A stretch of DNA of 64,000 bases, taken from the NCBI GenBank assembly GCA_963700155.1, contig OY969472.1:445511-509510 (forward strand), given 5' to 3'. This DNA is from an uncultured bacterium. Its GTDB lineage: Bacteria; Patescibacteriota; Dojkabacteria; J137. Each line of letters opens with the position of its first letter. The first letter of the stretch is position 1. This document shows positions 9,413-36,707 of the stretch, piece after piece. Under the pieces are notes generated by a model. The model was not told the DNA's origin, ran no database searches, and saw only the letters and a list, made by a program, of their open reading frames with translations. Made by a program: the position numbers and the translations under genes.

Positions 9413-10534
9413 TTGATTAAATTGTACTCAGTAAGTATTTACAAAAATATGAGTATATTTAATCGAAAGTCAAAAGCGACTAGTGTTTTATTAGCGCTAG
9501 TATTAATTATAAGTTTTCCTTTATCCTTCTTTTTAAACAGTAGGGTAGATGCAGCTACATTTGGGAACTTTTCAGTTAGACCTTCAAGAGTAGAAGCTAG
9601 TATTACTGATGTTAACTTTCTTATAAAAGCTCAACCTGTGACAACTGCGACAGAAGATGAAGTTCAAGTTACTTTTGGAACTGGATACACAGTTGATGGA
9701 ACACCAGGTAATATTTCAGTTTCAACAACAGCAGTCTCCTCTTGGGATACTGATTGTGCAAATGCATGGCCTAGTATCGGAACAACTGCAACAGGTGTTT
9801 CTTCACAAGTTGTAACATTTGCATCCGGAGATCTTACTGTTGGACAAGTTTATTGTTTTATAATAACTGCAGGGATTGATAATCCCGCAAGTATTGGGAA
9901 TTATACAGTGGCAGTCGATACATTACAATCAAGTGCAACAGTTGATTCTGGAGTAATGTCCTTACCTATAATAGATGATGACTCAGTTGTTATAACCGCT
10001 TCAGTTGCACCTTTTGTAAGATGTGATGTGGGTACTACAAATGGTTTTAGCGATAATGCAGTTGATCTTGGAGTTTTACAATATGGTACTGTAAAAACTT
10101 CTTCAGAAGATATTAGATTAGGTCTTGGAACTAATTCTGTCGGTGGTGCAACACTTTATTACACCAGTACAAATGGAGGTTTAAATTCAAGCTCAGGGTC
10201 TTATACTTTAACAGGACCTACTGCAGAAGGGACTCTATCTCCAACAGTTTTAGATTGCACAGGAGCAACACCGTGTTTTGGTATTTACTATAGTGGTGTT
10301 TCTTCAACAAGTACAGGTTCAATAGCTGCAGATTCCAACTTCACAGGTTTAACAGCTACAGATGCAGCAGGTCCTTTAACTACTGCGGCGTATGGCCAGT
10401 CTGTTGCATCTTCATCAGGAGCACTATCTAATGGAGTAATTGAATTTAATGTAAATGCAACTGCTTCAGAGCAAGCCCCAGCTGCTTCAGATTATACTGA
10501 TACCTTAACATTTACTTGCAAAGCTGACTTGTAA
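9413..10534 (+). CDS. Secreted Thr/Ser-rich surface protein, WxL-like C-terminal motif (paralogue of 12465-13646)
   Basis: It has an N-terminal signal/TM segment. The body is T/S/G-rich. The C-terminus ...ASDYTDTLTFTCKADL resembles the WxL-domain terminal motif (Y-x-G-T-[LI]-T-W-x-L), with F in place of W. Confidence 0.5.
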   Translation: MIKLYSVSIYKNMSIFNRKSKATSVLLALVLIISFPLSFFLNSRVDAATFGNFSVRPSRVEASITDVNFLIKAQPVTTATEDEVQVTFGTGYTVDGTPGNISVSTTAVSSWDTDCANAWPSIGTTATGVSSQVVTFASGDLTVGQVYCFIITAGIDNPASIGNYTVAVDTLQSSATVDSGVMSLPIIDDDSVVITASVAPFVRCDVGTTNGFSDNAVDLGVLQYGTVKTSSEDIRLGLGTNSVGGATLYYTSTNGGLNSSSGSYTLTGPTAEGTLSPTVLDCTGATPCFGIYYSGVSSTSTGSIAADSNFTGLTATDAAGPLTTAAYGQSVASSSGALSNGVIEFNVNATASEQAPAASDYTDTLTFTCKADL

Positions 10535-10573
10535 ATTTCATAATTATAGGTAAATTTTGATTCTTAGTTTTGT

Positions 10574-11611
10574 ATGAAAAAAAACTTCTTTATAATCTTA
10601 ATCTTTGTAATAATCTCTTTTATAATTATACAAAAAGTAAGGGCTCAGGAAACTGGAGTTATTGTTTCACCACCAACATTCAGTAAAAATTTGCAAGAAG
10701 GAACAAGCTATAACCAATTATTTAACGTAACAAACCAGAAAACCCAGGATAATGAATTTTTTATAACGACAAGGGACATTACAGTTGATGATAATGGTCA
10801 GTTTACTTCAGTAGAAAATCAAGATGGTAATAATGAATCTACTTTTGTAAAAAATGGATGGCTTACAATAACCCCAAGTTCTTTTTTTTTAAAGAGAGGA
10901 GAGTCCAACCAGTTTTCAGCACATTTTGATGTCCCATTAAATTTTCCTACTCATGGTTATTATTTTGAAATTGTTGTTACTACCAAAAAACCACAAGAAC
11001 AAGGTGGTAAAGTTGGATTAGTGACTGAAGTCGCTATACCATTGAGTGTAAATTACATTGGGAAAGAGGATGAAATAAGGAAATTCGCTATTGCCACTTT
11101 TGACAGTACATCTGATGCATTTACTACTACAAACTTTTTGTATGAGTATCCTCCAGTTGAATTTAAAACTGTACTTCAAAATATTGGGAATGTAAATGTT
11201 GTACCAACTGGTGAAATCTTTATTTCAAGAGACAATTCTTTTTCAAATGTTATTGCTACTATTCCTTTCAATCCAACAGGACAAACAGGTTTTGCAGGCA
11301 CTTTCAGAGAATTTCAAAACACTTGGGATGGTGGTTTCTTAACATTAGATGATAATAATAGACTACAAGTAAATTTTAATCAGCTTAGTGACTTTAGAAT
11401 AGGGCAGTATTATGCTCAGCTTAATGTTGTTTGGGATGGGCTGCAAGGTAAAGAATTTGAGAATAGAATAATTACATTCTGGATAATTCCTTGGAAATTA
11501 ATATTACTTTTAGTTGGTATAATAATTGTAATAATATTCTTACTGATAAGAGGGAGAAGAATTAAAAGAAGAAAAAACAAACAGCAAATATTTACAAATT
11601 TTAATCAATAA
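10574..11611 (+). CDS. Cell-surface protein with N-terminal signal peptide and C-terminal TM + basic tail (DUF916-like, CscA-type)
   Basis: The signal peptide is MKKNFFIILIFVIISFIIIQKVRA. The C-terminal anchor is LILLLVGIIIVIIFLLIRGRRIKRRKNKQ. The N-domain pattern (P..NLQ...SYNQLF.V.NQ....DNGQF) recalls DUF916. Confidence 0.5.
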   Translation: MKKNFFIILIFVIISFIIIQKVRAQETGVIVSPPTFSKNLQEGTSYNQLFNVTNQKTQDNEFFITTRDITVDDNGQFTSVENQDGNNESTFVKNGWLTITPSSFFLKRGESNQFSAHFDVPLNFPTHGYYFEIVVTTKKPQEQGGKVGLVTEVAIPLSVNYIGKEDEIRKFAIATFDSTSDAFTTTNFLYEYPPVEFKTVLQNIGNVNVVPTGEIFISRDNSFSNVIATIPFNPTGQTGFAGTFREFQNTWDGGFLTLDDNNRLQVNFNQLSDFRIGQYYAQLNVVWDGLQGKEFENRIITFWIIPWKLILLLVGIIIVIIFLLIRGRRIKRRKNKQQIFTNFNQ

Positions 11612-11613
11612 TA

Positions 11614-12468
11614 ATGGCTCAAGGTATCACATTTCTACCATCAATTTATGAGTTAGAGCTCAGTAAGGGGGATACTTTAAAGCTGACCGGAGCAATTACT
11701 AATGACACGGATAAGTCGATAGTATTTACACTTGATAAAAAGAATGTTTCTATAGATTCAATAGCTCAAGGGAATTTAAATCTTATCGATTATGCACAGT
11801 TTACACCTGCTGATTGGATTATTTTAAGCAATGATAAAATACAGGTTAGTTCTCATCAAACTAAAAACTTCAATTTTGAAATTAAACTACCTAAAAATGC
11901 AGATATCAAAGATTACTACCCTTTAATTCTATTACAAAATGAAGAGAGTAAAAAGCAAGCAGATATTGGAGTTAATTATAAAGTAGCGGTACCAATACTT
12001 GTAAATATAAAAGAACAGACTGAACCAGCACAGGATTTTATTAAAATTACAGATTTCAGGAACGCCAATAATATTGTTACAAATTTAAATCTTAATCTTA
12101 GTTTTGGAATAAATAATTTAAGTAAAAACTTTGTAAAACCTTCAGGAATAATAAAAATTTATGATAATAATGGCCAACTTTTAGAAAACTTACCTCGAAT
12201 AAATGATGATTTTAAAACAGTTTTACCAGGACAGGTTTTAAGCGAGAATATAAACTGGGATGGAGCAGAGAATACTTTTTCAATTATTCCTAAATTTGGA
12301 AATTATAAAATTCAACTTGAAGTTTATACTGATCCAGCAGAACAACCTGTTGTGATGGAGTCTAACTTTTTTATTTTACCAATTTATCATATTATTGCAG
12401 CAATATTGTTAATTGTTGCTGCAGTATTCATAATAATCAGATTAAGAAAAAGAAGAATTAATCGTTAA
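11614..12468 (+). CDS. Cell-surface protein with C-terminal TM + basic tail (DUF3324-like)
   Basis: 284 aa. The C-terminal anchor is IIAAILLIVAAVFIIIRLRKRRINR. It is translationally coupled (3-nt gap) to the upstream DUF916-like gene. Confidence 0.45.
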   Translation: MAQGITFLPSIYELELSKGDTLKLTGAITNDTDKSIVFTLDKKNVSIDSIAQGNLNLIDYAQFTPADWIILSNDKIQVSSHQTKNFNFEIKLPKNADIKDYYPLILLQNEESKKQADIGVNYKVAVPILVNIKEQTEPAQDFIKITDFRNANNIVTNLNLNLSFGINNLSKNFVKPSGIIKIYDNNGQLLENLPRINDDFKTVLPGQVLSENINWDGAENTFSIIPKFGNYKIQLEVYTDPAEQPVVMESNFFILPIYHIIAAILLIVAAVFIIIRLRKRRINR

Positions 12469-13646
12469 ATGCTACCAGCAACAAGAAAAGTTAAAGTATC
12501 TGTATAATCCCCTGCACTTATAGTAGTTTCGTCAGCTTTAGCTTTCACATAATAACTAATTCTTCCCTCATAAACCGGTGAACTTGAAGAATTTAATATT
12601 TCAGTCCCAGGAAAAACATCCGAAATACCACCTACGATGTTTCCACTCTGACTAAAACTACTAGTCGCTTGAAGTGGACCTAAATAAGTTTGTGTTGTTG
12701 AATATTCTTGTATTCCAAATCCTTTAGCAGAATCTAAATCAACATCTATAGAGGGGATTGTATTACTAGAAGAAGCACTAAAAAGACCTCCATTCAAACT
12801 TTCTCCAAACACCTGAACTCCTTGAGTCATATTTGTTCCTACATCCATCCAGATTAGGTTGGCGGCGGTCGAAACATTCGGATAAGTAATCGTCCCAAGA
12901 TCAACAGCATATGGTCCGCCTGTTTCGACCGCCGCTCCAGAAGTATTTGCAATATCAATATCAAAAGTTATCATTGGATAAGAAGTTGTTGTATTTGCAT
13001 CAGTACTAGGTTCAGTTTCAGTAAAATCACCATGCAAAGCTGTTAACTTCAAATAATAAGTTGTATTTGGATTTAATCCTAAAATATTAAATGTTGGAGT
13101 TTCCCACGAAGATTCAGTTAAATAATCATTAATATCATGACTTGCAGCATTTTCTATCAAAAATGTTGAACCATCAATATATTGCCAGGTGCTCCATGAT
13201 GGATCAGTAGAAATTCTTACACTATATAAAGTGTCACTGGGGTTATCCTGTGGATCTATCTCAAACCTAGCTTTGTTAAAACATCCCCCTTGTCCACAAA
13301 CTTCAACCATTCCAGCTGTAACAGCAGGATTATCACAAGCACTAGACCCTGAGGATATAGTTTCAAAACATTTTACTTTCGGAACGTTTGCTTTCCATGT
13401 GTTTGTAACTCCTGTTCCAAGTGTATAATTATTTGAACTAAATCTTACATCATTTAATATTTCATCTCCTGAGATCAAGCTTTTTAAATTTGTTCCATCA
13501 ACTGAATTTTCTCCAGTTGTAGAAAAAGTAAAATCTTTAATTTTTAAATTATTTGAATCTAAATCTTCTGCAAAAATAACACTTGAAAATAATGTTGTGA
13601 TTAGAAAAAAAAATATAAGAATTTTTAGAGTATTTATTTTATTCAT
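12465..13646 (-). CDS. Secreted surface protein, WxL-like C-terminal motif (paralogue of 9413-10534)
   Basis: The signal peptide is MNKINTLKILIFFFLITTLFSSVIFA. The C-terminus ...AGDYTDTLTFLVAGSI shares the DYTDTLTF motif and internal blocks (VDLG...GTN...GG...NGGL) with the 9413 protein. Confidence 0.5.
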   Translation of the reverse strand: MNKINTLKILIFFFLITTLFSSVIFAEDLDSNNLKIKDFTFSTTGENSVDGTNLKSLISGDEILNDVRFSSNNYTLGTGVTNTWKANVPKVKCFETISSGSSACDNPAVTAGMVEVCGQGGCFNKARFEIDPQDNPSDTLYSVRISTDPSWSTWQYIDGSTFLIENAASHDINDYLTESSWETPTFNILGLNPNTTYYLKLTALHGDFTETEPSTDANTTTSYPMITFDIDIANTSGAAVETGGPYAVDLGTITYPNVSTAANLIWMDVGTNMTQGVQVFGESLNGGLFSASSSNTIPSIDVDLDSAKGFGIQEYSTTQTYLGPLQATSSFSQSGNIVGGISDVFPGTEILNSSSSPVYEGRISYYVKAKADETTISAGDYTDTLTFLVAGSI

Positions 13647-13805
13647 ATAACGTTCATTCTAATTGTTAGAAGACTACAAAGTCAAACTTTCTTAAGCAAT
13701 AAATTATTGACACCAGGTATCTATTCCTATAAGCTGTATTATTGAACTATTAACCTTTTTATTTAACTTTGCACGACTGCTTTTGATATATACTAATTAA
13801 ATATC

Positions 13806-16800
13806 GTGCACAAAGTTAACTCAATAAACAGAAGAGAATTTTTCATTGCTATATTTAGCATTCTTTTTTGTATATTTATTTTACTCAATCAAAGAATTCA
13901 GCATGTATTCGCAGCTTCAAATAGTACAATTTCTATCCAAGGTAAAATTGTAGATAAAAACGACGGGACTAATGTAACTTCGTCAAGTGTAGCTTGCATA
14001 AATAATGGAGGTCCGGATGCTTGCAAATTTAGAGTTAGTATTTATGATGGAAATACTGGAAGCGATACTCTACTATGGCAAGAAACTCATACAAATGTTG
14101 AAATCGGGGATACTGGAGGAATATTTAATTTGAACTTGAACTCAATTTGTGGAAGCTGGGACAATCCCACTACTCCATGCAGTGGAAGTGGAATTACTTG
14201 GGGCAGCGGGGATCTATATATTCAAATCGATGTTGATGTAGATAATGACAATAGTTATTCCGAATCCTTCCCCGCTGCCCCGGCAGATAGACCGTTATTT
14301 ACTAGTGTTCCATATTCATACTACTCTGATGTTGCTGGGACAGTTCCTGCAAACAGTTTAGATTTCACTGAGTTTAAAGATACAATGACATTAGATAATT
14401 CAACTATTATAGATTTTGGATCATCTACAAATAGTTTTACTCTTCTAAATAATGGTTCTGGTGATGGTATTGTAAATTTAACTTCTACTGGTGGATTTAA
14501 TATCCAAAGTGGTGGTAACACATACGCACAATTCACGGCAGCCGGAAATGTAGGAATTGGATTAGCTACAGCACCGGATGGGAAATTACAAATTAAAACA
14601 GATAGTACTGCTGCATCGGGTAGTACTTACGGACTGCATGTTAATGGTTCACAATCTACTGCAAATTCAGGTTCTTATTATGGAGTATATTCAAATCCAA
14701 GTTATACTGCTGCCTCCGGTAATACGTTAAGTTTTCTTTATGGAGGCAATTTTAGCCCCTATAACGGATCAACAGGAACAATTTCATATTTATATGGTCT
14801 ATATAGTGGACCTAATAATACTGTTGGGGGTTCGATTGGTTCAATCTATGGGTTAAGTGCAGCACCAACAAATTCTTCAAGTGGTTCTATAACATCAATG
14901 TATGGAATTTCAGCTGTAACTATAAAATCAGGCACTGGTACAATTGGTACTGCATATGCATTGTATGGACAAGTGAGGAATAATAACGCAACTGGGGCAA
15001 TTACAACTGGATATGGTCTTTATATCGACACACCAGCCACAACTGGAGCTATTACAAATAACTGGGGTATTTATCAAGCTGATACTGCAGGCTTAAACTA
15101 TTTTGGAAATAAAAGCAGTTTTGGAACAACTACTGCGACAGCATATTTAAATTTAGCTCCAAGCACCACATCACAAGCTAGTTTAAGATTAGTAAGCAGT
15201 GCAGGCACAGATCCTTCTTCTGCTAATAGTGGAGATTTATGGTGGAATGGAACTAACCTTTACTTTAATGATGGTGGCTCAAATACTGATCTCTTAGCTG
15301 GAGGTGGTTGTGGAGGTAGCTGCTTTGAACAGGGAGGAAATGCTTTTGGTGCAACTGGTGTTCTTGGTACAACAGATTCTAATGATGTCTCAGTTATAAC
15401 TAATGGAACTAATAAATTATATATACAAGATTCTACCGGTAATGTTGGTGTTGGTAATAATAATCCTACTTCACTTTTCTCGGTTGGCTCTTCATCTGAA
15501 TTTCAAATAGATTCTTCTGGTAATATCGTTAACTTAGGTGGTGCTGCTCATTCTATTGCTAACTCATCTGGTGCTCTTAATATTGATTCTGCTTCAACAG
15601 GAGCTATTAATATTGGGACATCTTCTAATGCTAAAACTATTACTGTTGGTAACACTACTGGTGCTACTGGTTTAGTCTTTAACTCTGGTACAGCTGGTAT
15701 TTCATCTACTTCTACTGCGACATCTGGTAATGCATTTTCATATACTGCTAATTCTCTTAGTAGTGGTAATGGTCTTTATGTTACATCAACCGCTGCTTCC
15801 TTCTCTGGTTCTTTAGCTAAAATTTTCTGGAATCCTACTTCTGGTAGTACTGCTACTGGTGATTTATTTACTATTGACACTGCTGGTGGAAGTGTTTTAG
15901 GTAACTTATTCAATGTTAAAGATGGTGGTAGTTCTTTATTCTCTGTTTCTCAGACTCAGGTCACTTCCACCATTCCTGTTCAATTTAATGCTCCTGGTGA
16001 TGTTGCAATTGCGTATGATATTGTTTTAACAAATCCTGTAGCATCATTTGTAAAGTCAAACTCTAATTTAAATTTACAGGCTGGAGCATCTTTTGCATCA
16101 TCAAATTTAACTTTAAGTACATTTAATAGCGGGATGATCGTTCTTGATTCTGCTACTGTTTATGCTAATGGGAATGTAGGCATCGGAGTCTCTCCTTCTT
16201 ACAAGCTTGATGTTCTGGCAAGTGGGACAGGAGTAATCGCTAGATTTAATAGCGCTAATACTACTGGTTGTACTCTAGCTACTGGTGGAACTATTTCTTG
16301 TTCTTCTGATGTTAAATTAAAACAAGATATTGCTGATATTAATTATGGAATCGGCACTGTAATGCAGCTTAGACCTGTCTCATTCAACTGGAGAAATCAA
16401 GATAATCCTTATAAAAGTTTAGGGTTTATTGCACAAGATGTTAATTCAATTTTACCTAATTTAGTAACAGTTGATTCAGCTTCTGGGAACATGGAGTTAA
16501 ATTCTATCGGATTTATTCCAATATTAACTAAAGCAATCCAAGATCAGCAGGAAGAGATTACTGCAATGCAGTCAGTTTTAGGTATTTCAACAAACGGGAG
16601 TGCAGCTCATATTTTAACGCAGGAAAATATTCTAAGTTATTTAAACAATACAACAATTCCTAATTTTAAAGTTAAAAAAATCACTATAAATGAACAGCTT
16701 ATTGCTAAATCTGTTGTAGTCGTAGGTGATACTACGTTTATTGGTAAGGTTAGTGTTGGAAGCGATACTGCAGGGAAAGCAACTATAAAAGCAGGGGAAA

Positions 16801-17012
16801 GTAATGTTAAGGTAATGTTCTCATCATCATATCAAGAAGCACCTATTGTAACTGTAACCGCCGTAAATTCATCTGTAATCTATAAAGTTAAAAATATTTC
16901 AAACAATGGATTTACAATCGAATTGAGTAATCCAGAGACAAGCGATATTGAATTTAATTGGATTACAGTTGGAATAACTCAAAGTACACCAGCTTCATAC
17001 CCACTTAATTAA
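13806..17012 (+). CDS. Large secreted fibre-like protein: Gly/Thr/Ser-rich beta-repeat body + tail-fibre intramolecular chaperone (Peptidase S74-like) domain + C-terminal H-type-lectin-like domain
   Basis: 1068 aa with an N-terminal TM/signal. CSSDVKLKQDIADINYGIGTVMQLRPVSFNWRNQ...LGFIAQDVNSILPNLV matches the Ser-Lys autoproteolytic chaperone domain of phage tail spikes and endosialidases. The terminal segment VKVMFSSSYQEAPIVTVTAV...NNGFTIEL...IEFNWITVG resembles an H_lectin domain. Confidence 0.7.
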   Translation: MHKVNSINRREFFIAIFSILFCIFILLNQRIQHVFAASNSTISIQGKIVDKNDGTNVTSSSVACINNGGPDACKFRVSIYDGNTGSDTLLWQETHTNVEIGDTGGIFNLNLNSICGSWDNPTTPCSGSGITWGSGDLYIQIDVDVDNDNSYSESFPAAPADRPLFTSVPYSYYSDVAGTVPANSLDFTEFKDTMTLDNSTIIDFGSSTNSFTLLNNGSGDGIVNLTSTGGFNIQSGGNTYAQFTAAGNVGIGLATAPDGKLQIKTDSTAASGSTYGLHVNGSQSTANSGSYYGVYSNPSYTAASGNTLSFLYGGNFSPYNGSTGTISYLYGLYSGPNNTVGGSIGSIYGLSAAPTNSSSGSITSMYGISAVTIKSGTGTIGTAYALYGQVRNNNATGAITTGYGLYIDTPATTGAITNNWGIYQADTAGLNYFGNKSSFGTTTATAYLNLAPSTTSQASLRLVSSAGTDPSSANSGDLWWNGTNLYFNDGGSNTDLLAGGGCGGSCFEQGGNAFGATGVLGTTDSNDVSVITNGTNKLYIQDSTGNVGVGNNNPTSLFSVGSSSEFQIDSSGNIVNLGGAAHSIANSSGALNIDSASTGAINIGTSSNAKTITVGNTTGATGLVFNSGTAGISSTSTATSGNAFSYTANSLSSGNGLYVTSTAASFSGSLAKIFWNPTSGSTATGDLFTIDTAGGSVLGNLFNVKDGGSSLFSVSQTQVTSTIPVQFNAPGDVAIAYDIVLTNPVASFVKSNSNLNLQAGASFASSNLTLSTFNSGMIVLDSATVYANGNVGIGVSPSYKLDVLASGTGVIARFNSANTTGCTLATGGTISCSSDVKLKQDIADINYGIGTVMQLRPVSFNWRNQDNPYKSLGFIAQDVNSILPNLVTVDSASGNMELNSIGFIPILTKAIQDQQEEITAMQSVLGISTNGSAAHILTQENILSYLNNTTIPNFKVKKITINEQLIAKSVVVVGDTTFIGKVSVGSDTAGKATIKAGESNVKVMFSSSYQEAPIVTVTAVNSSVIYKVKNISNNGFTIELSNPETSDIEFNWITVGITQSTPASYPLN
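15600..16700 (+). repeat. ~1.1-kb near-identical duplicated segment, copy A (partner at 21306-22415), mosaic with a more divergent ~200-bp core
   Basis: Direct nucleotide comparison: 15600-16010 versus 21306-21715 and 16215-16695 versus 21920-22415 differ only by scattered SNPs. 16010-16215 versus 21715-21920 is clearly more divergent. Confidence 0.8.
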
Positions 17013-17380
17013 GGAGTAGAATTTGAATTACTTTGAGAGATTTGGGCTACATTTACAATCTTATTTACAGATGCTCTATAAATAATTGCCTCAGAAGTAA
17101 AAATAATTAGAGTATCACCATTAACAGCATTTTTATAAAATTCCGGGTCTTCGTTTTTTAACTGGTCAATATTACTAATAGTAGCAATTTTAGGATTAGA
17201 CTCATCGGGTAATATTATTAAGTCAGTAAGATTAGAAATAATACTTTCTTTTGTTGATTGTTGAGATTGTAAATCTACTTGATTTTTTAAGATCACATAT
17301 TGATATACCAAGAAACCCATTACAGTTAAGAAAATGAGCACTATTAGAATTAACAAAATATTTTTATTTTTTTTAACCAT
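17009..17380 (-). CDS. Small single-pass membrane protein carrying one copy of a novel ~45-aa repeat (shared with 35988-36707)
   Basis: 123 aa. The N-terminal TM is ILLILIVLIFLTVMGFLVY. The repeat is ...PKIATISNIDQLKNEDPEFYKNAVNGDTLIIFTSEAIIYRASVNKIVNV. Confidence 0.55.
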   Translation of the reverse strand: MVKKNKNILLILIVLIFLTVMGFLVYQYVILKNQVDLQSQQSTKESIISNLTDLIILPDESNPKIATISNIDQLKNEDPEFYKNAVNGDTLIIFTSEAIIYRASVNKIVNVAQISQSNSNSTP

Positions 17381-17498
17381 AAAAAGTGACTTAAATATTG
17401 ATATAGACAGCGTTTCAGTCTAGAATAAATCGTAAACCATTTTTTTTGGAATATCAACTATATCTTTATAAGAAAAGTTGGTTATTAATTAACAGATA

Positions 17499-22766: not shown

Positions 22767-22779
22767 GGATAAGTCACTT

Positions 22780-23907
22780 ATGCTAAAAGATAAATTTAAT
22801 AAGATTAAAAAAGTAATAGAAAAAAATAAACTCCTAAAAAGTTTTAAAGGAAGGCTTATTTACATATTAAAGCAATTAGATCAGAGATTTAAAATAATAA
22901 AAAGTTGGGGATTAAAGAATAGAAAACATCAATTTTTGGGTACGATATTCATTTTAATGATTCTTTTACCTATAGCTTCCATTTTAATGTTTTTATTTAC
23001 TAAACCTGTTCAAGCAGACTGGTTTAATGCAAATTGGAGTTTTAGAAAAAGAATAGATATAGTTAATAGTTCTGGTACAACACTTACAAATTTTCAGGTT
23101 AAATTTTCAATTGATACCGCTTCACTTTATTCAACTGGGAAATTAAGATCAGACTGTGGAGATATTAGAATTACTGACAATCAAGGTAAAATTCTTCCGT
23201 ATTGGATCGAGACATCAAATGTAGCCTGTAATGCAAATAGCAGTCAAACCATATGGACTAAAATTGACAGTATTCCTTCAAGTGGTGCTAATAATGTTAA
23301 ATATATCTATCTTTACTATGGGAATCCGCTAGCAACCTCAACACAAAATGGGAATGACACTTTTGATTTCTTTGATGATTTTTCATCATCAACCTTAAAT
23401 TCTAATAAATGGACTGCAACTGGGGCATATTCAATATCATCTGGGGCTTTAACAATAACAACTGGATCTGTATATTCGAATAATACTATAGTTTCATCAA
23501 ATCAAAATGAAATGTTCGAAATGAGAGCTAAATGGGCGACTACACAAACTTCATATTCAGGTATAATGATTTCAAATGCAAATAGCATTCAAGGTGGTAA
23601 TGCTGGCTCCAATAAACTTTCTATGTTGATGACAAATGCTGGAGTAGGTATTGATCAACAGGCATTTGCAGCTGATGGGACATCAGCAACGTATAATATT
23701 GTAAACAATATAACTCAGTTTACACCAACAGCAAACACATATTATTTTTCTGGATTTTCTCATACAACTTCAAACCTAAGATATTATCAAAATCGTTCAC
23801 AAACAAATTCATATTCAGATACTGCAAATTTTTCACCATATTTATTTTTGGGATATTTTGCAGGTTCAACTGCAGGCACTCGCAGATACAACAGATACAA
23901 CTATTGA
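22780..23907 (+). CDS. N-terminal fragment of a giant surface protein: signal-anchor + DUF2341 + start of a concanavalin-like module (reading frame lost near 23875-23890)
   Basis: It is paralogous to the N-terminus of 29356-35889 (NRKHQFLGTIFILMILLPIASILMF...VQADWFNANWSFRKRIDI versus NRRHQFLSILLILLFFLPIASVIT...VQAAWFNENWQYRQRLDI). The DUF2341 hallmark ...YIYLYYGNP is present. This ORF ends 50 nt after the next ORF starts, in another frame. Confidence 0.7.
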   Translation: MLKDKFNKIKKVIEKNKLLKSFKGRLIYILKQLDQRFKIIKSWGLKNRKHQFLGTIFILMILLPIASILMFLFTKPVQADWFNANWSFRKRIDIVNSSGTTLTNFQVKFSIDTASLYSTGKLRSDCGDIRITDNQGKILPYWIETSNVACNANSSQTIWTKIDSIPSSGANNVKYIYLYYGNPLATSTQNGNDTFDFFDDFSSSTLNSNKWTATGAYSISSGALTITTGSVYSNNTIVSSNQNEMFEMRAKWATTQTSYSGIMISNANSIQGGNAGSNKLSMLMTNAGVGIDQQAFAADGTSATYNIVNNITQFTPTANTYYFSGFSHTTSNLRYYQNRSQTNSYSDTANFSPYLFLGYFAGSTAGTRRYNRYNY

Positions 23908-29332: not shown

Positions 29333-29355
29333 TAATAATATATTGAATATTAGAA

Positions 29356-32300
29356 ATGAGTAAAAATTTGAAAAAAATAACAAAGAACATAATTAAAATA
29401 AGAAAAAAGATTTCTAATTCGTCTTTTTACATAAAAAGATTCTCTCCTCTGAAGAATAAATTTTATAATTGCATTTTTAATATAAAAACCTGGGCTTTTA
29501 AAAACAGACGTCATCAATTTTTAAGTATTTTATTAATTTTACTATTCTTTTTACCCATTGCCTCAGTTATAACTACACTTTTATCAACACCTGTACAAGC
29601 AGCATGGTTTAATGAAAATTGGCAATACAGACAAAGACTTGATATTACAATAACATCATCTAGTAGTGATATCTCGAATTTACAAATGTATTTTACAGTT
29701 AATACATCTGTACTTATATCAACTGAAAAACTTCAATCTTCGTGTCAAGATTTACGTTTTACAAGTGTTTCGGGACGGCTTCTGCAATATTATATAGATT
29801 CTGGATGTAACACAACAGCTACAAAAATTTGGGTAATGGCGGACTTAATTCCTAAAAATACAACTACTTATCAAATATATATGTACTATGGAAATCCAGC
29901 GGCATCAGCTGGATCAGAATCAGGCTATTTTGATAATGTAGTTGGATTAGCAGCTTATTGGACTTTTAATGATGGAAGTGGTATCAGTGTTGCTGATTCT
30001 TCAAAAAATGCATTTACAGCAACAATAAATACTGGAACCTTTACAACCGGTAAGTTCGGGACAGCTTTAAGTAAAAACGGTTCAGGGCAAGGGGCAACTG
30101 CTACATATGGAGCAGGAAGTGATTTAGACTTCCCGGCAAATACACAAGTTACTGTAGAATTTTGGTTGAACTCACCTACTTCTCACACCAGCCGTCTTAT
30201 TAATGCTATTGCATCTGGAGGATTAAATGTCCCAAATATTGGTACAGCTTTGTACTTTGGGGTATTTTCCGGTAATACTGTAACTTTTAATAGTGCCATC
30301 TCCTATGATGGAGCGTGGCACCATTATGCCTTAAGTTATAATGGTACAAGTGTAAGTTACTATAAAGACGGTTCTTTTGTATCTAGTCAAAACCTTGCAG
30401 CTAATTGGACAACAGGCTCAAAGACTTTTTACCTTGGTGGAGATGCTTCATATCCTTTAAATGGAGCACTTGATGATGTTAAAGTTTATCGAACAAGTAG
30501 AAATTCAACACAAATACTTGCTGATTTCAATAATACCAGTTGTGGAGGATTGGTATGCACAATTGCAACATCACCTGTTGGCACAGTTAATCCTAGTTCA
30601 GTTTCTTTTAACTCTGAAGAAATTGGCCCTGGTCCAGTTGCAAATTGGGGTCTCGATGAAGGGTATGGAGATAGTTCTACAGGAAATGGTCCTGTTGCAT
30701 ATTGGAACCTAGATGAAAATACTAACATAACAGCTACTGATTTGAGTGGGAATGGTAATACTGGAACATTAACTGGCAGTCCAACATGGGTAAGTGGAAT
30801 ATATAATTCTAGTGTAAATTTTAATGGTAGTAGTAATTATATAACAATAAATAATTCCACCTCTTTAAATATTAGAGCTCCAATAACTTTATCTGCCTGG
30901 ATTTACCCTACATCAACTGCTTCATTTCAAAATGTAATATCTAAAAGAAATACCACTTCTCCTTATTCACTGCGAATTAATAACGGAACAAATCTTGAAT
31001 ACTATTTTCATGACGGGACAGCTTACCGTGAATATATTAAAACTGGAGTTATAAAACTAAATACATGGCAGTTTGTTGCTGCAACAAATGATGGTACTAA
31101 TATTAATTTATATGTAAATGGGGTTAATGTCTTATCAACTACTACACCATATACCCCTGCTACAACTACAGATACTATTCAAATAAGTGGTTGGCACGGT
31201 ATAAATGAATTGTTTTCAGGGTCAATTGATGATGTGAAAATTTATAATTACGCCAGAAGTGCCAATCAGGTTATTGAAGACATGAATAGAGATGTCCATT
31301 CTAATGGTACAGCAGGAAAAAGTGCTTATGGATTTAACTACGGTGCTACTTGGCAGACTGAAGATCAATGTGTTGTAAGAAAATGTTTAAGCTTTAATGG
31401 TACTAGTAACTATGTATCTCTTTATCCTAACTTACAAACAACTAGTAAAATTACAATTTCATCATGGATTAATACAAGAACTTTATCATTACCATCTAAC
31501 TTTAGAATGATTTTTTCTTCTTCAGATGGAGCATCATACCTTGCACTTGTAACAAATGGTTTAGCAACTCCTTTTGTCTCATTTGATATTGGGGGAACTC
31601 AACGAGCTCTAAATTCTAATTTTATTCCTAAAATAAATCATTGGTACTATGTTACCGCTACATATGATGGTAATTATATAAGAATTTATGTAGATGGAAT
31701 CCTTCGTAATACTAGTGCACAATATGTAGGTTCCTTAGCAGGATTTAGCTCTGGTTCAATGTACATAGGCAAATATTTAGCAGCTGGATATGAATTTAGC
31801 GGTAAACTAGATGAATTAAAAATTTATCCTTATGCGAGAACAGATGATCAAATAAAAAGTGATTACAATTCAGCTGCAGAGTTGCTTGGAAAACAAAATC
31901 AAACTTATTTAAGTAATGATTTAGTAGGGTATTGGAAGATGGATGAATCATCTTGGAATAATAATTGCTCTACTACCTCTGTAATCGATTCTTCTGGTAA
32001 TGGATTTAATGGTAAATCATGTCCTAATGGTAGTGGACCTACTGGAGGTGCAGTAGGTAAGTTTGGCAATGCTGGATATTTTGATGGAGTTAATGACTAT
32101 GTTGAAGTAGCTGATAATGATTTATTGGATCCTGCTAATGCAATTACAGTCGCTATGTGGTTTAGACCAGACCAGACACTTGTTGATTTTCAGGCAGTTC
32201 TTGGGAAAGGAGGAGGGGCTTCCTTCGAGAAAGGGTATGAATTTGCAACAAGCAACGATCAATTTGGTTTCTGGGTCAATGGTAATACCCATATTGCAAC

Positions 32301-35300
32301 TACAACAAAACCAGCTAATGGGGAACTAACTTTTTGGGTAGGTACCTATGATGGTAAGACTATCAAACTTTACAAAAATGGATCACTTGTAAGTAGTACT
32401 AATTATGTTGGAACAATTACTAATACAACCTTACCATTCAGGATTGGGAGACCTGCAGAAGATGGTGGTAATAATCTTTATGTTCAAGGAATGTTTGATG
32501 ATGTGAGAGTATACAATAGAGCATTTACTCAAGCTGAAATTACAAGTTTATATAACTGGGCGCCTGGACCAATAGAGTATCTAAAATTCGATGAGAATAC
32601 AGGATCATCGATTAATGACAGTAGTGGAAATAATAATAAAGGAACTTGGAATGGAACATTAGGCTCACAATGGAGTACAGGAAAAGTTGGAACTGCAGGT
32701 GAATTCAATGGTACAGATAACTATGTAAATATCTCTGATTCTTCGACTCTAGATATAACCGGAGACATGACATTAAGCACATGGATAAAACCAAATGCAA
32801 CACAAAATGCATCTGCAGATATTATAAGTAAACATGGGAACGGAGGATTCCTTATCGAGCAAAATAACACAACAAATAATCAATATTATTTTGGTTGGGA
32901 TAGTACTGGATCCGGCGGTTGGAATTGCTTAACAACATACTTTAGTTTAACAGGAGGAGTATGGCAGCATTTAGAAATAGTTAAAAGTGGAGCTGTTGCC
33001 AAATATTATATAAACGGAGTTTCAACTGGAAGTTGTACAGGAACTAATCAAGCAATTTCTGCAAATTCTTTAGCATTAAAAATAGGTTCATGGAGTTCTT
33101 CTGGCAATAGATTCTGGAATGGATTAATTGATGATTTTAAATTTTACAATTATGCTCGAACATCTGGACAGGTAGTTGAAGATATGAATGGAGGGCATCC
33201 TGTAGGTGGCTCGCCCATAGCCTCTCAAGCTATTTACTACAACTTTGATGAAGGGAATGGGAACACCGCAGCAAGCTCTAATCCAGTTGCTTACTGGAGA
33301 TTTGATGAAAATACAGGAACTATAGCAACAGATTCCGGGAGCGGTGGTCATAATGGAACACTTACTAATAGTCCGTCTTGGATTAAAGGAGTTTATGAAT
33401 CAGCCTTAAATTTTACTGCAGCACTTAATCAAAATGTAACAACATCATCAGTTGTATCTAGTGCTACTACAAATATTACAATGGAGACATGGGTATATTG
33501 GACGAACGGCCCAACTGGGAATTCTACTTTCTACTATAATGGGAACTCTGGATCAAACGGATATGGTCTTAAGTTGAATAACGGATCAGGATCAGCAGGA
33601 AATAAAGTAACAGTAATACTTGGAGGTTTAGCATTTGATGTTACAAGCAGCACTTTGGTACTTACTCCTAAAGTCTGGACACATATTGCACTTACTCGAA
33701 GTGGTACCACATGGACTCTTTATAAAAATGGAATTCTTGACAGCATTGGAACAACAAATCCAGGCACCCCAACTACAAGTACTATTATTGGGAGTGGATT
33801 CGATGGTATTCTTGACGATTCAAAATTTTATAATTATGCTCGTACACCAGCTCAAATAATTGAAGATATGAACCGAGATGTGCATAACAATGGATTTTTG
33901 GGAAGTACTGATAATGCATTTAATTATGGAGGAACATGGAATTCTGGATCAAGTTGCAAAGTTAACGGATGCTTAGATATAGACTCTGCTACTGATTACG
34001 TCACTCCAGGAGATATTTCACTTACTGATGGATTAACTCAAATGAGCATTAGTATGTGGATCAATCCAGCTATTACTGCAAATTCTGAAATAATCGGGAA
34101 GTGGGGAGATACTTCAACTACTTCTAATTTTCTTGTACGAACAAACAGCCCTGGAAGTGAGATTGTTGTATTCATTGCTTCTTCATTAAGTGATAATGGG
34201 TCTAATTATTTCTATACAACAGATTTGAATCTATCTAATGGTGTTTGGACCAAACTACAAATTATATATGATGGGACACAAAATGCGACGAATAGGATAA
34301 CAATCTATAGTAATGGAAGAAAAGTAAATGGTGGTTACATTGGAACTATTCCAACATCTATGACTTCCGGAAGCACTTCAAACTTAAAGTTAGGAGATGC
34401 AGATTTTAGTGTATTTACAGCATTGCCAGCTAAATATGATGATCTTAAAATATATAATACAGCTATTACAGCAGAACAGGCTCAAATTGACCTGAATTCA
34501 GGATATAGTGAAAACTTTGGAGTCGGTGCGCCGTCTGAAGCAAGTTTGCTTTCAGACGGCGCAGGTAATTCTCCTACCAGATATTGGAACCTTGACAGCA
34601 ACACAGGAACTACTGCTTATGATATTTCAGGAAATAATAGCAATGGAAGTTTTGTTGGAACACCTGTTTGGACTCCAGGCAAGTATGGATCCAGTTTAAC
34701 TTTTGCTGATGGACAGGATATTAATGTACCTGATTACTCACTCGCAGGTGCTTTTACAATGCAGTATTGGTATAAGACAAATGACACAACATCTGTAAAA
34801 ATATCCCTTGGAGAAGATAGTGGTACTTCAGGAGGTGGTCCCAAAATAGGTATCTCAAGCAGTACATTTTTTGTGCGTATAATTAGCAGTACTGATAGTA
34901 CTATTAATGGGAAAACCGACGGTAAATGGCATTTCGTTTCCATTACCCGTAATGCTAGTGACAAAGTAGATTTATATCTAGATGGTGGCACGGCAAATAG
35001 ACTTTTTTCTGATACTGCTCAAACAGGTACTTTTACTTTATCTAATCTTGGTTCAAATAGCGATAACAGTCAGAACTTTATAGGAACCTTAGATGATGTA
35101 AAAGTTTACGATTATGCTCGTACTCAAGCCCAACTAGCATATGATTACAATCGCGGCGCTCCAGTGGGGTGGTGGTGGCTTGATGAATGTCAAGGATCAA
35201 CCGCTTATGATGCTTCAGGCAATGGAAATAATGGAGCAATAACAATCGGAACTGGAGCTGGGACAGGCCATATTGATTCTGTAGGAAATTGTACTACTTC

Positions 35301-35889
35301 TGGAACTGCTTGGTATAACGGTTTGAATGGTAAATTCAATTCTAGTTTAAGCTTTGATGGGATAGATGATTATGTGAGTATGACAGCTTCTCTTAGTAGT
35401 TTTAGCAGTCTTTCGACTGGTACAATTACAGGGTGGTTTAAGAGAGCGAATACAAGTAATAGAGATATTATTTTCAGTTTAGGAGAATCTTCAACAAACG
35501 ATCGTTTTACTCTCGAGATTAATGTTGCATCAAACCAATTTTTCAGAGTTTTAGCTAGAGAAGCAAATAGTAATGTTTTAGACATTTATTCAACAAAAAC
35601 ATATGATGATACTTCTTGGCATAATTTTGCAGTTGTTAATGACAATACAAGTACTATAAAAGTATATATCGATGGTTTATTACAAACTACGATTGGGACA
35701 CAATCAAATAGTTGGTTTAATACTGTCACAAGTAAAGATTACATGAATATTGGAAAAGATACAATTGGTTTATTTTCAGGGCAAATTGATGACTTTAGAA
35801 TCTACAATTATGCACTGTCTGCAGATCAAATCAAGCAAGTTTACAACGGTGCATCTGTATTTTTTGGTCCAACATCAGGTACTCCATAA
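29356..35889 (+). CDS. Giant surface protein (2177 aa): basic cytoplasmic tail + signal-anchor TM + DUF2341 + ~10 Laminin_G_3/concanavalin-A-like lectin modules; intact paralogue of 22780-29332
   Basis: Continuous ORF. Its N-terminus is paralogous to 22780. Several modules are about 70-75% identical to those of 23858-29332 (for example WQTEDQCVVRKCLSFNGTSNYVSL... versus WETEDQCVIGKCLLFNGSSNYVSL...). It has repeated ...DD(V/F)K(I/V)YNYAR(S/T)..Q(V/I) module endings. Confidence 0.8.
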   Translation: MSKNLKKITKNIIKIRKKISNSSFYIKRFSPLKNKFYNCIFNIKTWAFKNRRHQFLSILLILLFFLPIASVITTLLSTPVQAAWFNENWQYRQRLDITITSSSSDISNLQMYFTVNTSVLISTEKLQSSCQDLRFTSVSGRLLQYYIDSGCNTTATKIWVMADLIPKNTTTYQIYMYYGNPAASAGSESGYFDNVVGLAAYWTFNDGSGISVADSSKNAFTATINTGTFTTGKFGTALSKNGSGQGATATYGAGSDLDFPANTQVTVEFWLNSPTSHTSRLINAIASGGLNVPNIGTALYFGVFSGNTVTFNSAISYDGAWHHYALSYNGTSVSYYKDGSFVSSQNLAANWTTGSKTFYLGGDASYPLNGALDDVKVYRTSRNSTQILADFNNTSCGGLVCTIATSPVGTVNPSSVSFNSEEIGPGPVANWGLDEGYGDSSTGNGPVAYWNLDENTNITATDLSGNGNTGTLTGSPTWVSGIYNSSVNFNGSSNYITINNSTSLNIRAPITLSAWIYPTSTASFQNVISKRNTTSPYSLRINNGTNLEYYFHDGTAYREYIKTGVIKLNTWQFVAATNDGTNINLYVNGVNVLSTTTPYTPATTTDTIQISGWHGINELFSGSIDDVKIYNYARSANQVIEDMNRDVHSNGTAGKSAYGFNYGATWQTEDQCVVRKCLSFNGTSNYVSLYPNLQTTSKITISSWINTRTLSLPSNFRMIFSSSDGASYLALVTNGLATPFVSFDIGGTQRALNSNFIPKINHWYYVTATYDGNYIRIYVDGILRNTSAQYVGSLAGFSSGSMYIGKYLAAGYEFSGKLDELKIYPYARTDDQIKSDYNSAAELLGKQNQTYLSNDLVGYWKMDESSWNNNCSTTSVIDSSGNGFNGKSCPNGSGPTGGAVGKFGNAGYFDGVNDYVEVADNDLLDPANAITVAMWFRPDQTLVDFQAVLGKGGGASFEKGYEFATSNDQFGFWVNGNTHIATTTKPANGELTFWVGTYDGKTIKLYKNGSLVSSTNYVGTITNTTLPFRIGRPAEDGGNNLYVQGMFDDVRVYNRAFTQAEITSLYNWAPGPIEYLKFDENTGSSINDSSGNNNKGTWNGTLGSQWSTGKVGTAGEFNGTDNYVNISDSSTLDITGDMTLSTWIKPNATQNASADIISKHGNGGFLIEQNNTTNNQYYFGWDSTGSGGWNCLTTYFSLTGGVWQHLEIVKSGAVAKYYINGVSTGSCTGTNQAISANSLALKIGSWSSSGNRFWNGLIDDFKFYNYARTSGQVVEDMNGGHPVGGSPIASQAIYYNFDEGNGNTAASSNPVAYWRFDENTGTIATDSGSGGHNGTLTNSPSWIKGVYESALNFTAALNQNVTTSSVVSSATTNITMETWVYWTNGPTGNSTFYYNGNSGSNGYGLKLNNGSGSAGNKVTVILGGLAFDVTSSTLVLTPKVWTHIALTRSGTTWTLYKNGILDSIGTTNPGTPTTSTIIGSGFDGILDDSKFYNYARTPAQIIEDMNRDVHNNGFLGSTDNAFNYGGTWNSGSSCKVNGCLDIDSATDYVTPGDISLTDGLTQMSISMWINPAITANSEIIGKWGDTSTTSNFLVRTNSPGSEIVVFIASSLSDNGSNYFYTTDLNLSNGVWTKLQIIYDGTQNATNRITIYSNGRKVNGGYIGTIPTSMTSGSTSNLKLGDADFSVFTALPAKYDDLKIYNTAITAEQAQIDLNSGYSENFGVGAPSEASLLSDGAGNSPTRYWNLDSNTGTTAYDISGNNSNGSFVGTPVWTPGKYGSSLTFADGQDINVPDYSLAGAFTMQYWYKTNDTTSVKISLGEDSGTSGGGPKIGISSSTFFVRIISSTDSTINGKTDGKWHFVSITRNASDKVDLYLDGGTANRLFSDTAQTGTFTLSNLGSNSDNSQNFIGTLDDVKVYDYARTQAQLAYDYNRGAPVGWWWLDECQGSTAYDASGNGNNGAITIGTGAGTGHIDSVGNCTTSGTAWYNGLNGKFNSSLSFDGIDDYVSMTASLSSFSSLSTGTITGWFKRANTSNRDIIFSLGESSTNDRFTLEINVASNQFFRVLAREANSNVLDIYSTKTYDDTSWHNFAVVNDNTSTIKVYIDGLLQTTIGTQSNSWFNTVTSKDYMNIGKDTIGLFSGQIDDFRIYNYALSADQIKQVYNGASVFFGPTSGTP

Positions 35890-35987
35890 ATTATATGAAT
35901 TTAAAATGAATTTAGGATTCTAAGGTTGAATTAATCTCATCTTTAATATATGCTAATACTTACATATTAATATTTAGTAATTTTTGT

Positions 35988-36707
35988 ATGAATCCACAAA
36001 GTCCATTACAGCAGAATCAAAATTCTCAACATAATTTTTCTCAGCAACAAGTGATGCCTCCAAATCAGGCTAAAAAAGGAAGGAAGTCTTTCTTAAAAAG
36101 AATCTGGAATACCAAAAGTGTTTTAATTATTGTTGCTATTTTACAGATCATCATCATTGTTTTAATTCTGAATCCAGTTGCATTAGTTCAGCAATATCAA
36201 AATCAGCAGATTATAAATGAAGTTGCAGCAAAAACAGCAGTCAACACTGCCGAGAGTCCAGTAATTGCCACAATTACTAATGCAGATCAACTAAGAAGTG
36301 CGAACGCTGCTCAAGCACAGGTCTATAAAGATGCACAGAACGGAGATTATGTTCTAGGATATTCAGATAAAATGATAATTTATAGAAGAGGTACTGGAGA
36401 AGTAATTTATAATGGTGATAATCCTAATGATTTAGTAACACATACTCAAGAGAAATTAGTAAGTGATATTGTAGATAAAGCTAAAAAACAGAATCTAATC
36501 TCATCAGATTCTACTGAAACACCTCAAATATCAATAATTACTGATGTAAAAAGTTTACAAACTGCAAACCCTGATTTTTATAGCATAGCTAGGAATAATG
36601 ACATTGTTGCTTTATTTCCACAAGAACAATTAATTGTTTTGTATAATCAAGAAACAAGCACAATAGTAAATTCTGGTAAATATTCAACCAATATTTCAAA
36701 TCTTTAA
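35988..36707 (+). CDS. Single-pass membrane protein with Q/N-rich cytoplasmic N-terminus and two copies of the novel ~45-aa repeat seen in 17009-17380
   Basis: The TM is VLIIVAILQIIIIVLIL. Repeat 1 is PVIATITNADQLRSANAAQAQVYKDAQNGDYVLGYSDKMIIYRRGTGEVIYN. Repeat 2 is PQISIITDVKSLQTANPDFYSIARNNDIVALFPQEQLIVLYNQETSTIVN. Confidence 0.55.
   Translation: MNPQSPLQQNQNSQHNFSQQQVMPPNQAKKGRKSFLKRIWNTKSVLIIVAILQIIIIVLILNPVALVQQYQNQQIINEVAAKTAVNTAESPVIATITNADQLRSANAAQAQVYKDAQNGDYVLGYSDKMIIYRRGTGEVIYNGDNPNDLVTHTQEKLVSDIVDKAKKQNLISSDSTETPQISIITDVKSLQTANPDFYSIARNNDIVALFPQEQLIVLYNQETSTIVNSGKYSTNISNL

Follow-up and report, generated by a model that had tools for sequence, protein, structure and literature searches.

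The WxL/Csc clusters of the Bacilli, i.e. the Csc clusters of Lactiplantibacillus and the WxL loci of Enterococcus and Listeria, are the closest described systems to the surface-protein locus analysed in this work. They are sortase-independent, their WxLIP proteins are formed by a DUF916 domain, a DUF3324 domain and a transmembrane (TM) helix, and the role of the large adhesive component is taken by a "large WxL" protein whose WxL anchor is C-terminal. Two motifs, D.RGT.AGW.L and a distal WxL strand, characterize the WxL proteins, more than 91% of which are known from Firmicutes (PMC9772566). The locus described here occupies positions 9413-36707 (about 27 kb, or 42.6%) of a 64-kb stretch of contig OY969472.1 (hereafter, the window, meaning this stretch at its full length) and encodes surface proteins only. 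The nearest named relatives of the protein encoded at 9449-10534 belong to Candidatus Dojkabacteria (at most 71% identity), and the island is the surface-protein locus of a bacterium of this group, a member of the Candidate Phyla Radiation (CPR, or Patescibacteria). We regard as somewhat probable that it represents a resident, non-phage region composed of two adjacent evolutionary units, in which a wall-bound platform would carry exchangeable glycan-binding appendages. As far as sequences can tell, the most interesting result appears to be that a four-gene cluster and a gene for a fibre with a conserved N-terminal domain recur as a unit across CPR lineages.

About 30 related loci (indicated by L-numbers) were compared after annotation with local hidden Markov models (HMMs) built from our own alignments, those harbouring the cluster having been gathered through homologues of its partner proteins. 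The cluster, which in the window consists of two partner proteins (A and B) and two WxLIP-like proteins (1 and 2) (Table 1), is complete, i.e. it embeds at least two partner and at least two WxLIP-like proteins, in 12 of 12 independent loci (the window, L002, L004, L026, L027, which is the same as L037, L029, L030, L032 from Andersenbacteria, L033 from Saccharimonadales, L034, L035 and L036). The Dojkabacteria-like loci keep the cluster genes in the order and on the strands that they have in the window, the position and the strand of the gene for partner protein B being no exception. A giant protein sharing with the window fibres a ~200-aa N-terminal domain (hereafter N-domain; signature QGK.V...DGTN...F.F.IY...LW.E...G.F...LG...Y...R..TSVPYA) is encoded no more than 3.2 kb from the cluster in eight of the ten informative independent loci (the window, L026, L027, L030, L032, L033, L035 and L036); the contigs of L028, L029 and L034 end too early for this neighbour to be scored. 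The cluster and the N-domain gene adjoin each other in different CPR classes and among different flanking genes. Beyond the N-domain the proteins diverge widely, carrying Peptidase_S74 and H-lectin modules in the window, a CBM_4_9 domain in L033 and no recognizable domain in L026 and L027. Locus L006 has no cluster, and its fibre lacks the N-domain, as one would expect of an N-domain that serves the cluster, in a sample that is small and was selected via cluster homologues. Synteny, which the first-pass annotation of this DNA had proposed as the test of a single system spanning the whole island, was thus found for the cluster and the N-domain gene, but not for the island in its entirety.

The affinity with the WxL/Csc clusters is best seen in the two WxLIP-like proteins, which are paralogous to each other (E 1e-7). 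They form a fifth pair, overlooked in the first-pass annotation, beside the four listed there (partner proteins, fibres, giants and small membrane proteins), each of which proved to be homologous. That annotation had also spoken of WxL-like anchors; a WxL-related Pfam signal does exist in the cluster, but it belongs to the DUF916/WxLIP-like pair and not to the partner proteins to which it had been assigned. WxLIP-like protein 2 matches the Pfam model WxLIP_PGBD (DUF916, PF06030) with an E of 1.5e-3 and 19 bits, below the cut-off of 27.3, and two of its orthologues do so with E values of 2.5e-4 and 2.1e-5 (21.5 and 25.0 bits), also below threshold; these matches span most of the model. A word-indexed homologue search with the same protein gave just two matches. 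A profile made of the protein and its one close homologue, used in an exhaustive search of 1.84 billion representative proteins, retrieved 905 relatives of ~300-360 aa aligning from end to end. Out of 105 sampled relatives, all found with E values under about 3e-9, 45 show a match to PF06030 (E 4.8e-10 at best) and 18 to the generic model fn3_5, and the classical WxLIP motif NQIDKxxxYFDLK is absent among the 149 profile hits checked. The UniRef name of one relative from Dojkabacteria is "DUF916 domain-containing", and another relative comes from Parcubacteria. WxLIP-like protein 1 matches the local family HMM with an E of 4.6e-69, its orthologues matching fn3_5 weakly. In both proteins the second immunoglobulin (Ig)-like domain was assigned by length and alignment only.

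The two partner proteins share their C-terminal domain (33% identity over ~150 aa, E 1e-13 with BLASTP). An AlphaFold2 (AF2) model of a partner protein (pLDDT 86) consists of two beta-sandwich domains, the orthologues of partner protein B show weak fn3 matches, and a PDB sequence search with the partner-protein profile gave no match. In the alignment of this family, the sequence TNAxxGWxxW (distant members) or GTNxxxG..LYY (window) stands at the place of the WxL motif D.RGT.AGW.L, and a C-terminal DYTDTLT[FV] stands at the place of the distal one, the second tryptophan being absent. These motifs recall the two of WxL proteins, a resemblance to be taken as a lead and not as a demonstration. According to the definition of PMC10599100, the two WxLIP-like and the two partner proteins, contiguous at 9449-13646 and likewise in 11 other loci, would make up a WxL/Csc-type architecture, which counts as such only if the partners are WxL proteins.

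Like the WxL/Csc clusters, the locus is sortase-independent and encodes a secreted pair sharing a C-terminal beta-sandwich domain, tandem-Ig proteins that end in a TM helix and have an N-terminal domain detectably related to DUF916/WxLIP_PGBD, and no enzymes. Unlike them, it lacks a Pfam WxL domain and the tryptophan of the distal motif in the partners, a DUF3324 domain, and an LPXTG protein, which is frequent, even if not essential, in WxL clusters; the last 60 residues of the island proteins contain no LPXTG-like motif. It has, moreover, two WxLIP-like paralogues, one of which is usually devoid of a signal peptide, its large adhesive component is a polypeptide of its own that bears the conserved domain at the N-terminus, and its host phylum is CPR.

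Some observations weigh against this kinship, or against the linkage of the genes discussed here. None of the 29 members of the partner family, those of the window included, matches Pfam WxL (PF13731), even at E <= 1, and the structural neighbours of the partner protein are generic Ig-like adhesin folds. WxLIP_HBD (DUF3324) is matched by none of the 105 sampled relatives of WxLIP-like protein 2 at E <= 1e-3. A further match of the N-terminal domain in the WxLIP-like proteins is to the generic model fn3_5, whose cut-off one orthologue passes. The absence of a signal peptide from WxLIP-like protein 2, as well as from its orthologues in L026, L030, L002 and L004, is hard to square with an extracellular domain; the orthologue in L027 does carry one. 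Loci L002 and L004 harbour the cluster with neither a fibre nor a giant nearby, the gene for the small membrane protein is isolated in L007, L008, L012, L015 and L022-L025, and the counts of syntenic loci are low, the loci themselves having been chosen by cluster homology.

The orthologues of WxLIP-like protein 2 lie at 11374-12228 in L026, 2010-2906 in L030, 13526-14401 in L002, 12322-13221 in L004 and 6533-7495 in L027. Two of these loci, L027 (CAZNER010000028.1) and L030 (CAYGMI010000062.1), are labelled Saccharibacteria, yet their cluster proteins are 49-57% identical to those of the Dojkabacteria window and are arranged in the same order; the label may be loose.

The two fibres score well above the Pfam Peptidase_S74 cut-off of 22 bits, and the N-domain of fibre 2 matches the N-domain HMM with an E of 6e-63. 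As in the S74 fibres of phages (K1F endosialidase, T5 L-shaped fibre, S16 gp37), the S74 domain and its Ser-x4-Lys dyad follow a repeat-rich stalk, which in fibre 2 contains the internal repeats D3 and D5. In S74 fibres, folding from the C-terminus first and then self-cleavage is the expected mechanism, and a serine with a lysine five residues on is what we take to be the self-cleavage dyad of the members of this family. The dyad is intact and the cleavage motif TISCS/SDVKLKQDI (cut after the fifth residue) is identical in both fibres. In both of them the H-lectin module lies C-terminal to the cleavage serine. The first-pass annotation had described the fibres as lectin-tipped: the H_lectin match does pass in fibre 2, but that of fibre 1 fails, and the description is doubtful because the lectin-like domain follows an intact self-cleavage motif. 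If cleavage occurs, the mature fibres would end at Ser833 and Ser1505 and the lectin-like domain would depart with the chaperone. It might then be a released lectin or be retained non-covalently; alternatively, the fibres may not be cleaved at all.

The C-terminal 497 aa of the two fibres are 82% identical, and the first 300 nt of the 1155-nt repeat that they share reach 98%; a genome-contig scan with the fibre C-terminus found no relatives. The identity varies strongly from one segment to the next, being 24.9% in the N-domain, 91.5% in the pre-cleavage tip, 97.6% in the chaperone and 48.8% in the lectin-like tail. This mosaic pattern points to gene conversion as the probable origin of the similarity of the middle segment, and, because the tail diverges sharply, it suggests that the tail is not a mere disposable part of the chaperone.

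The presence of Peptidase_S74, together with the matches of the fibres to PHROG tail fibres and to tail fibres in phage records, and of an ORF6N gene of the phage anti-repressor family, might indicate that the fibres are prophage or tailocin remnants surrounded by unrelated genes. This seems to us highly improbable. The phage similarity of fibre 1 falls almost wholly within aa 656-959, a stretch formed by the chaperone and the segment just before it; neither the N-domain nor the C-terminal tail has a counterpart in phage records, and in the PDB the protein matches the chaperone part of a long-tail-fibre protein of a phage (E 0.023). Unlike the phage S74 fibres, those of the window are encoded on the chromosome with no phage neighbours, have Sec signal peptides, and bear an extra H-lectin-like domain after the chaperone. 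Scans of the IMG/VR viral contigs found no relatives, and fibres with the same N-domain lie beside the cellular cluster in many genomes. The island is flanked by housekeeping genes, and the gene scan of the 64-kb window revealed no capsid, tail, integrase, lysis, recombinase, reverse transcriptase, sortase or pilus gene. The ORF6N gene itself, which had been indicated as a phage-associated left bracket of the island, does carry the Pfam domain, but an orthologue with 58% identity occupies the equivalent position in L006; being a kept chromosomal neighbour, it gives no evidence of a prophage boundary, and it flanks the island on the left without belonging to the apparatus. A prophage, tailocin or contractile-injection origin of the island as such was rejected, the window having no structural genes.

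The right part of the island adds to the second fibre two DUF2341-LamG giants and two small membrane proteins. Earlier work has described large DUF2341 proteins in Patescibacteria and proposed a role for them in adhesion (PMC11809585), and DUF2341 proteins also occur in archaeal pilus loci, where they were likened to PilY adhesins (PMC4858521); the giants alone are, therefore, not new. Their DUF2341 domains score 89 (giant 1) and 45 bits (giant 2) against a cut-off of 23.4, and the Laminin_G_3 stretches, seven and nine in number, give E values of 1e-123 and 2e-187, respectively. The layout, a DUF2341 domain followed by ConA-like/LamG arrays in ~2000 aa, is that of the Patescibacteria giants. 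Unlike the pilus-associated proteins, those of the window have no pilus genes around them, and, unlike the giants known so far, they adjoin S74 fibres and small, putatively cystatin/PepSY-like membrane proteins and are found fused to S74 and H_lectin in L017.

The two genes share ~75% nucleotide identity over 763 nt and less elsewhere. The first-pass annotation counted two giants of ~2180 aa, which is right for giant 2, whereas in giant 1 a frameshift near 23858-23907 separates a 375-aa piece, with the TM helix and DUF2341, from an 1824-aa piece, with the seven Laminin_G_3 stretches. The junction (23840-23910) contains no homopolymer, and on either side of it the two frames stay open for tens of bases; in the comparison with the giant of L006, only the downstream frame of giant 1 was aligned. 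The split could be genuine, giant 1 then being a pseudogene, or could stem from the assembly. An alternative genetic code as its cause was rejected, rpoB, rpoC and giant 2 being intact under table 11. Giant 1 also contains, at 25784-26596, five tandem repeats of 162 nt (54 aa) with 67-75% nucleotide identity and a weak DUF5122 beta-propeller match; this propeller-like insert sits between LamG arrays and has no equivalent in giant 2.

The two small membrane proteins are 38% identical (E 9e-10), their domain being present twice in protein 2, whose AF2 model (pLDDT 84) comprises a TM helix, a long helix and two small helix-on-sheet domains. They may be likened to PepSY/cystatin-like membrane-anchored proteins such as YpeB and YpmB of Bacillus, and that they are adaptors, regulators or assembly factors is a guess. 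Homologues of the 239-aa protein were traced to ~20 loci, and in six diverged loci the gene stands directly beside a fibre or a giant, in differing orientations: its neighbours are a giant in L009, an S74 protein in L013 and composite proteins in L016 and L017. The orthologue of small protein 1 adjoins the fibre in L006 (54% identity) and is convergent with the fibre in L026, as in the window. The clusters of the loci outside Dojkabacteria contain an extra protein of ~200-250 aa with an N-terminal TM helix and a small extracytoplasmic domain (10075-10659 in L032, 7270-7902 in L033, 13447-14073 in L035, 13078-13710 in L036 and 12317-13063 in L034), which is similar in build, though unmatched by the HMM of the small membrane proteins.

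The composite proteins deserve some attention. At 245-2683 of L017, directly 5' of the small-protein homologue, an 812-aa protein joins DUF2341, Laminin_G_3, Peptidase_S74 and an H_lectin-like domain (21.8 bits, below the cut-off of 24), thus linking the giants with the fibres, and in L016 a 2588-aa protein, beside the small-protein gene, combines the fibre N-domain with beta-propeller repeats and LamG. To judge from their predicted domains, these proteins show that "fibres" and "giants" use one pool of modules.

The comparison of gene orders bears on the idea, advanced in the first-pass annotation, that all the 27 kb constitute one dedicated host-attachment apparatus, every component of which was duplicated for specificity switching. 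L006 (60% identity) harbours, in this order, the ORF6N gene, small protein 1 on the minus strand, an S74 fibre, a DUF2341-LamG giant, small protein 2, a 1124-aa surface protein unrelated to those of the island, and rpoB; this corresponds to 17009-36707 in single copy, without the left module. L026, to which the left module is most closely related, contains the cluster, a fibre, small protein 1 on the minus strand and small protein 2, and no giants. The window, therefore, combines both arrangements. The idea of one apparatus draws support from the existence of an island paralogue for each component, from the synteny of fibre, giant and small protein in L006 (fused or adjacent also in L009, L013, L016, L017 and L026), and from the divergence of the lectin-like tails compared with the flanking chaperone, which could mean diversified ligand binding. 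However, the sub-units occur apart in L002, L004, L006, L026, L007 and L008, which contradicts a single 27-kb unit. The ages of the pairs are also very unequal, from 92% nucleotide identity over the fibre repeat and ~75% in the giants to 20-33% protein identity in the cluster, and thus do not reflect one duplication event. As for switching, one giant is frameshifted, the would-be mature fibre tips are 91.5% identical, and the window contains no recombinase, reverse transcriptase or invertible repeat, its inverted repeats being short chance matches except for the terminator hairpin; switching through diversity-generating retroelements or invertible DNA was, accordingly, rejected for the window. 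On the whole, the idea is borne out only in part, and we consider a single duplicated apparatus improbable.

At the other extreme, no functional coupling at all might exist, and the interval between ORF6N and rpoB might be a recombination-prone spot gathering unrelated surface genes. The different gene sets held by the window, L006 and L026 at the corresponding place, and the further unrelated surface protein of L006, are in agreement with this possibility. The same is true for the base composition, since the guanine plus cytosine content, which is low in the window (~30%), climbs to 33-39% over 9-36 kb, a rise that is consistent with the coding of G/S/T-rich proteins rather than with a common origin. 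However, such a spot does not account for the cluster and the N-domain gene adjoining across CPR classes with differing flanks, for the union of giant-type and fibre-type modules in the fusion of L017, or for the small-protein gene standing beside a fibre or a giant in six diverged loci in varying orientation. We therefore hold this explanation to be unlikely.

It might also be supposed that the apparatus captures environmental polysaccharides for nutrition instead of attaching to a host. The Lactobacillus Csc clusters were originally proposed to serve in carbohydrate use (PMC1534035), and the LamG/ConA-like arrays, the H-lectin domain and the CBM_4_9 next to the cluster in L033 all belong to carbohydrate-binding families. 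However, no glycoside hydrolase or sugar-transport genes are present within or beside the island, and cultivated CPR bacteria depend on multiple adhesins for epibiotic growth (PMC10633639). The two roles are compatible, and nutrition as the actual function appears quite improbable to us.

The features of the region are reported in Table 1; the open reading frames (ORFs) lie where the first-pass annotation had placed them, and its statement that the island exceeds 40% of the window is correct. Also its view of the products as secreted or anchored is borne out, since signal peptides or signal-anchor helices, read directly from the sequence, are visible in every island protein except WxLIP-like protein 2. 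An NCBIfam scan of eight island proteins gave nothing useful.

Table 1. Genes, domains and other features of the surface-protein island and its borders (positions in the window).
Feature	Position	Strand	Description
ORF6N-domain gene	8834-9370	+	Pfam ORF6N E 2e-31; PHROG anti-repressor family
Partner protein A, 361 aa	9449-10534	+	ATG at 9449, ORF opens 9413; signal peptide, two tandem beta-sandwich domains
WxLIP-like protein 1	10574-11611	+	Signal peptide, two Ig-like domains, C-terminal TM helix, basic tail
WxLIP-like protein 2	11614-12468	+	No signal peptide, two Ig-like domains, C-terminal TM helix, basic tail
Partner protein B	12465-13646	-	Signal peptide, Fn3-like middle, C-terminal domain homologous to that of A
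Fibre 1, 1068 aa	13806-17012	+	Signal peptide, N-domain, G/S/T-rich stalk, Peptidase_S74, H-lectin-like tail
Fibre 1 N-domain	13914-14405 (~aa 37-200)	+	Aligned across nine proteins from related loci
Fibre 1 Peptidase_S74 chaperone	16305-16466 (aa 834-887)	+	47.9 bits; Ser834/Lys839
Fibre 1 H-lectin-like tail	16806-16961 (aa 1001-1052)	+	13.4 bits, below cut-off 24
Direct repeat, 1155 nt	15585-16739 and 21294-22448	+	92% identity; covers pre-cleavage tip and chaperone
Small membrane protein 1, 123 aa	17009-17380	-	N-terminal TM helix, one ~60-aa alpha/beta domain
Fibre 2, 1755 aa	17499-22766	+	Signal peptide, short-variant N-domain, long repeat-rich stalk, S74, H_lectin
Fibre 2 Peptidase_S74	22014-22175 (aa 1506-1559)	+	50.7 bits; Ser1506/Lys1511
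Fibre 2 H_lectin (PF09458)	22551-22724 (aa 1685-1742)	+	26.7 bits, cut-off 24
Giant 1, frameshifted	22780-29332	+	Pieces 22780-23907 (375 aa) and 23858-29332 (1824 aa), different frames
Giant 2, 2177 aa	29356-35889	+	~55-aa cytoplasmic N-tail, TM/signal-anchor helix ending VQA, DUF2341, nine Laminin_G_3 stretches
Small membrane protein 2, 239 aa	35988-36707	+	Variable cytoplasmic tail, TM helix, long helix, two alpha/beta domains
Hairpin, terminator-like	36714-36753	.	Perfect 19-nt arms, between island and rpoB

On the left, the island is preceded by housekeeping genes (glycosyltransferase, trigger factor, class I tRNA synthetase, phosphoglucomutase and a Sua5-TsaE fusion) and then by the ORF6N gene. 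On the right it is closed, as previously noticed, by a strong hairpin, which looks like a terminator, and by rpoB and rpoC without rplKAJL, none of which was found in the 64-kb window; these genes are missing 5' of rpoB in L006 as well. At 44508-46641, rpoC is succeeded by the genes for S12 and S7 and then, in place of fusA/tuf, by that for a TrmB-like regulator, with, further on, assorted metabolic and tRNA-modification genes. Three genes outside the island are worth noting. The one at 7628-8704 (minus strand) codes for a 358-aa fusion of Sua5/YrdC (aa 18-196) and TsaE (aa 214-325), two components of t6A tRNA modification. That at 50334-52142 (minus strand) codes for a 602-aa protein with Radical_SAM, Radical_SAM_C and GNAT acetyltransferase domains, an Elp3-type architecture which, to our knowledge, is rare in bacteria. 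Lastly, the 943-aa leucyl-tRNA-synthetase-like protein encoded at 56652-59483 (plus strand) has a Ser_hydrolase (alpha/beta hydrolase) domain inserted at aa 494-654; a 950-aa synthetase of L008 gives a faint Abhydrolase_1 match.

Returning to the two-unit organization that we favour, the first unit (9449-17012, probably serving fibre 2 too) may be regarded as a CPR version of the Gram-positive WxL/Csc cluster. The two DUF916-related tandem-Ig proteins would be held in the membrane by their C-terminal helices and would be partnered by the two secreted tandem-Ig proteins with the common C-terminal domain, the four of them together forming a wall-spanning, sortase-independent platform. The giant fibre, exported via Sec, might dock on this platform through its conserved ~200-aa N-terminal domain. 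After export, by analogy with phage fibres, it would trimerize starting from the C-terminal S74 intramolecular chaperone and would then undergo self-cleavage, at Ser834 in fibre 1 and at Ser1506 in fibre 2, so that the piece released or retained after the cut would bear the diverged H-lectin-like domain. The second unit (17009-36707) would represent an add-on made up of the second fibre, two DUF2341 and LamG giants anchored by an N-terminal helix, one of them apparently disrupted, and the two small N-terminally anchored, putatively cystatin/PepSY-like proteins, possible adaptors or regulators; so far it has been seen in Dojkabacteria-like contigs only, and loosely linked. The likely role of the whole would be the binding of glycans on partner or host cells, with the appendages being exchanged among lineages via recombination and domain shuffling. 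We infer this adhesive, glycan-binding role from the domain families, and it is consistent with the biology of cultivated CPR bacteria.

A remaining question concerns what such a locus might mean for the CPR, whose recognition of, and attachment to, partner cells is largely open. In cultivated Saccharibacteria, type IV pili and a few adhesins have been implicated experimentally (PMC10633639, PMC11880426), and a full-text search of the literature gave no relevant paper in which WxL-type clusters are linked to Patescibacteria. The present analysis adds a defined set of five genes, present as a unit in Dojkabacteria, Andersenbacteria and Saccharimonadales, which is a candidate for gripping other cells. 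It also ties DUF916/WxLIP, thought to be nearly confined to Bacilli, to giant fibres with a common N-domain, and suggests a way for a cell devoid of LPXTG proteins, sortase and an outer membrane to fix exchangeable appendages to its wall. More speculatively, and as a tentative proposal, we can imagine that CPR bacteria of several classes share a sortase-independent "socket and plug" surface organelle, in which the DUF916-like anchors and their Ig partners would be the socket and the fibres, docking through their one conserved N-terminal adaptor domain, the interchangeable plugs; lineages would exchange the distal modules (S74/H-lectin, LamG, beta-propeller, CBM, Kelch) and thereby redirect host recognition. 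If this were true, the socket and plug would be a main host-recognition device of the CPR, independent of pili.

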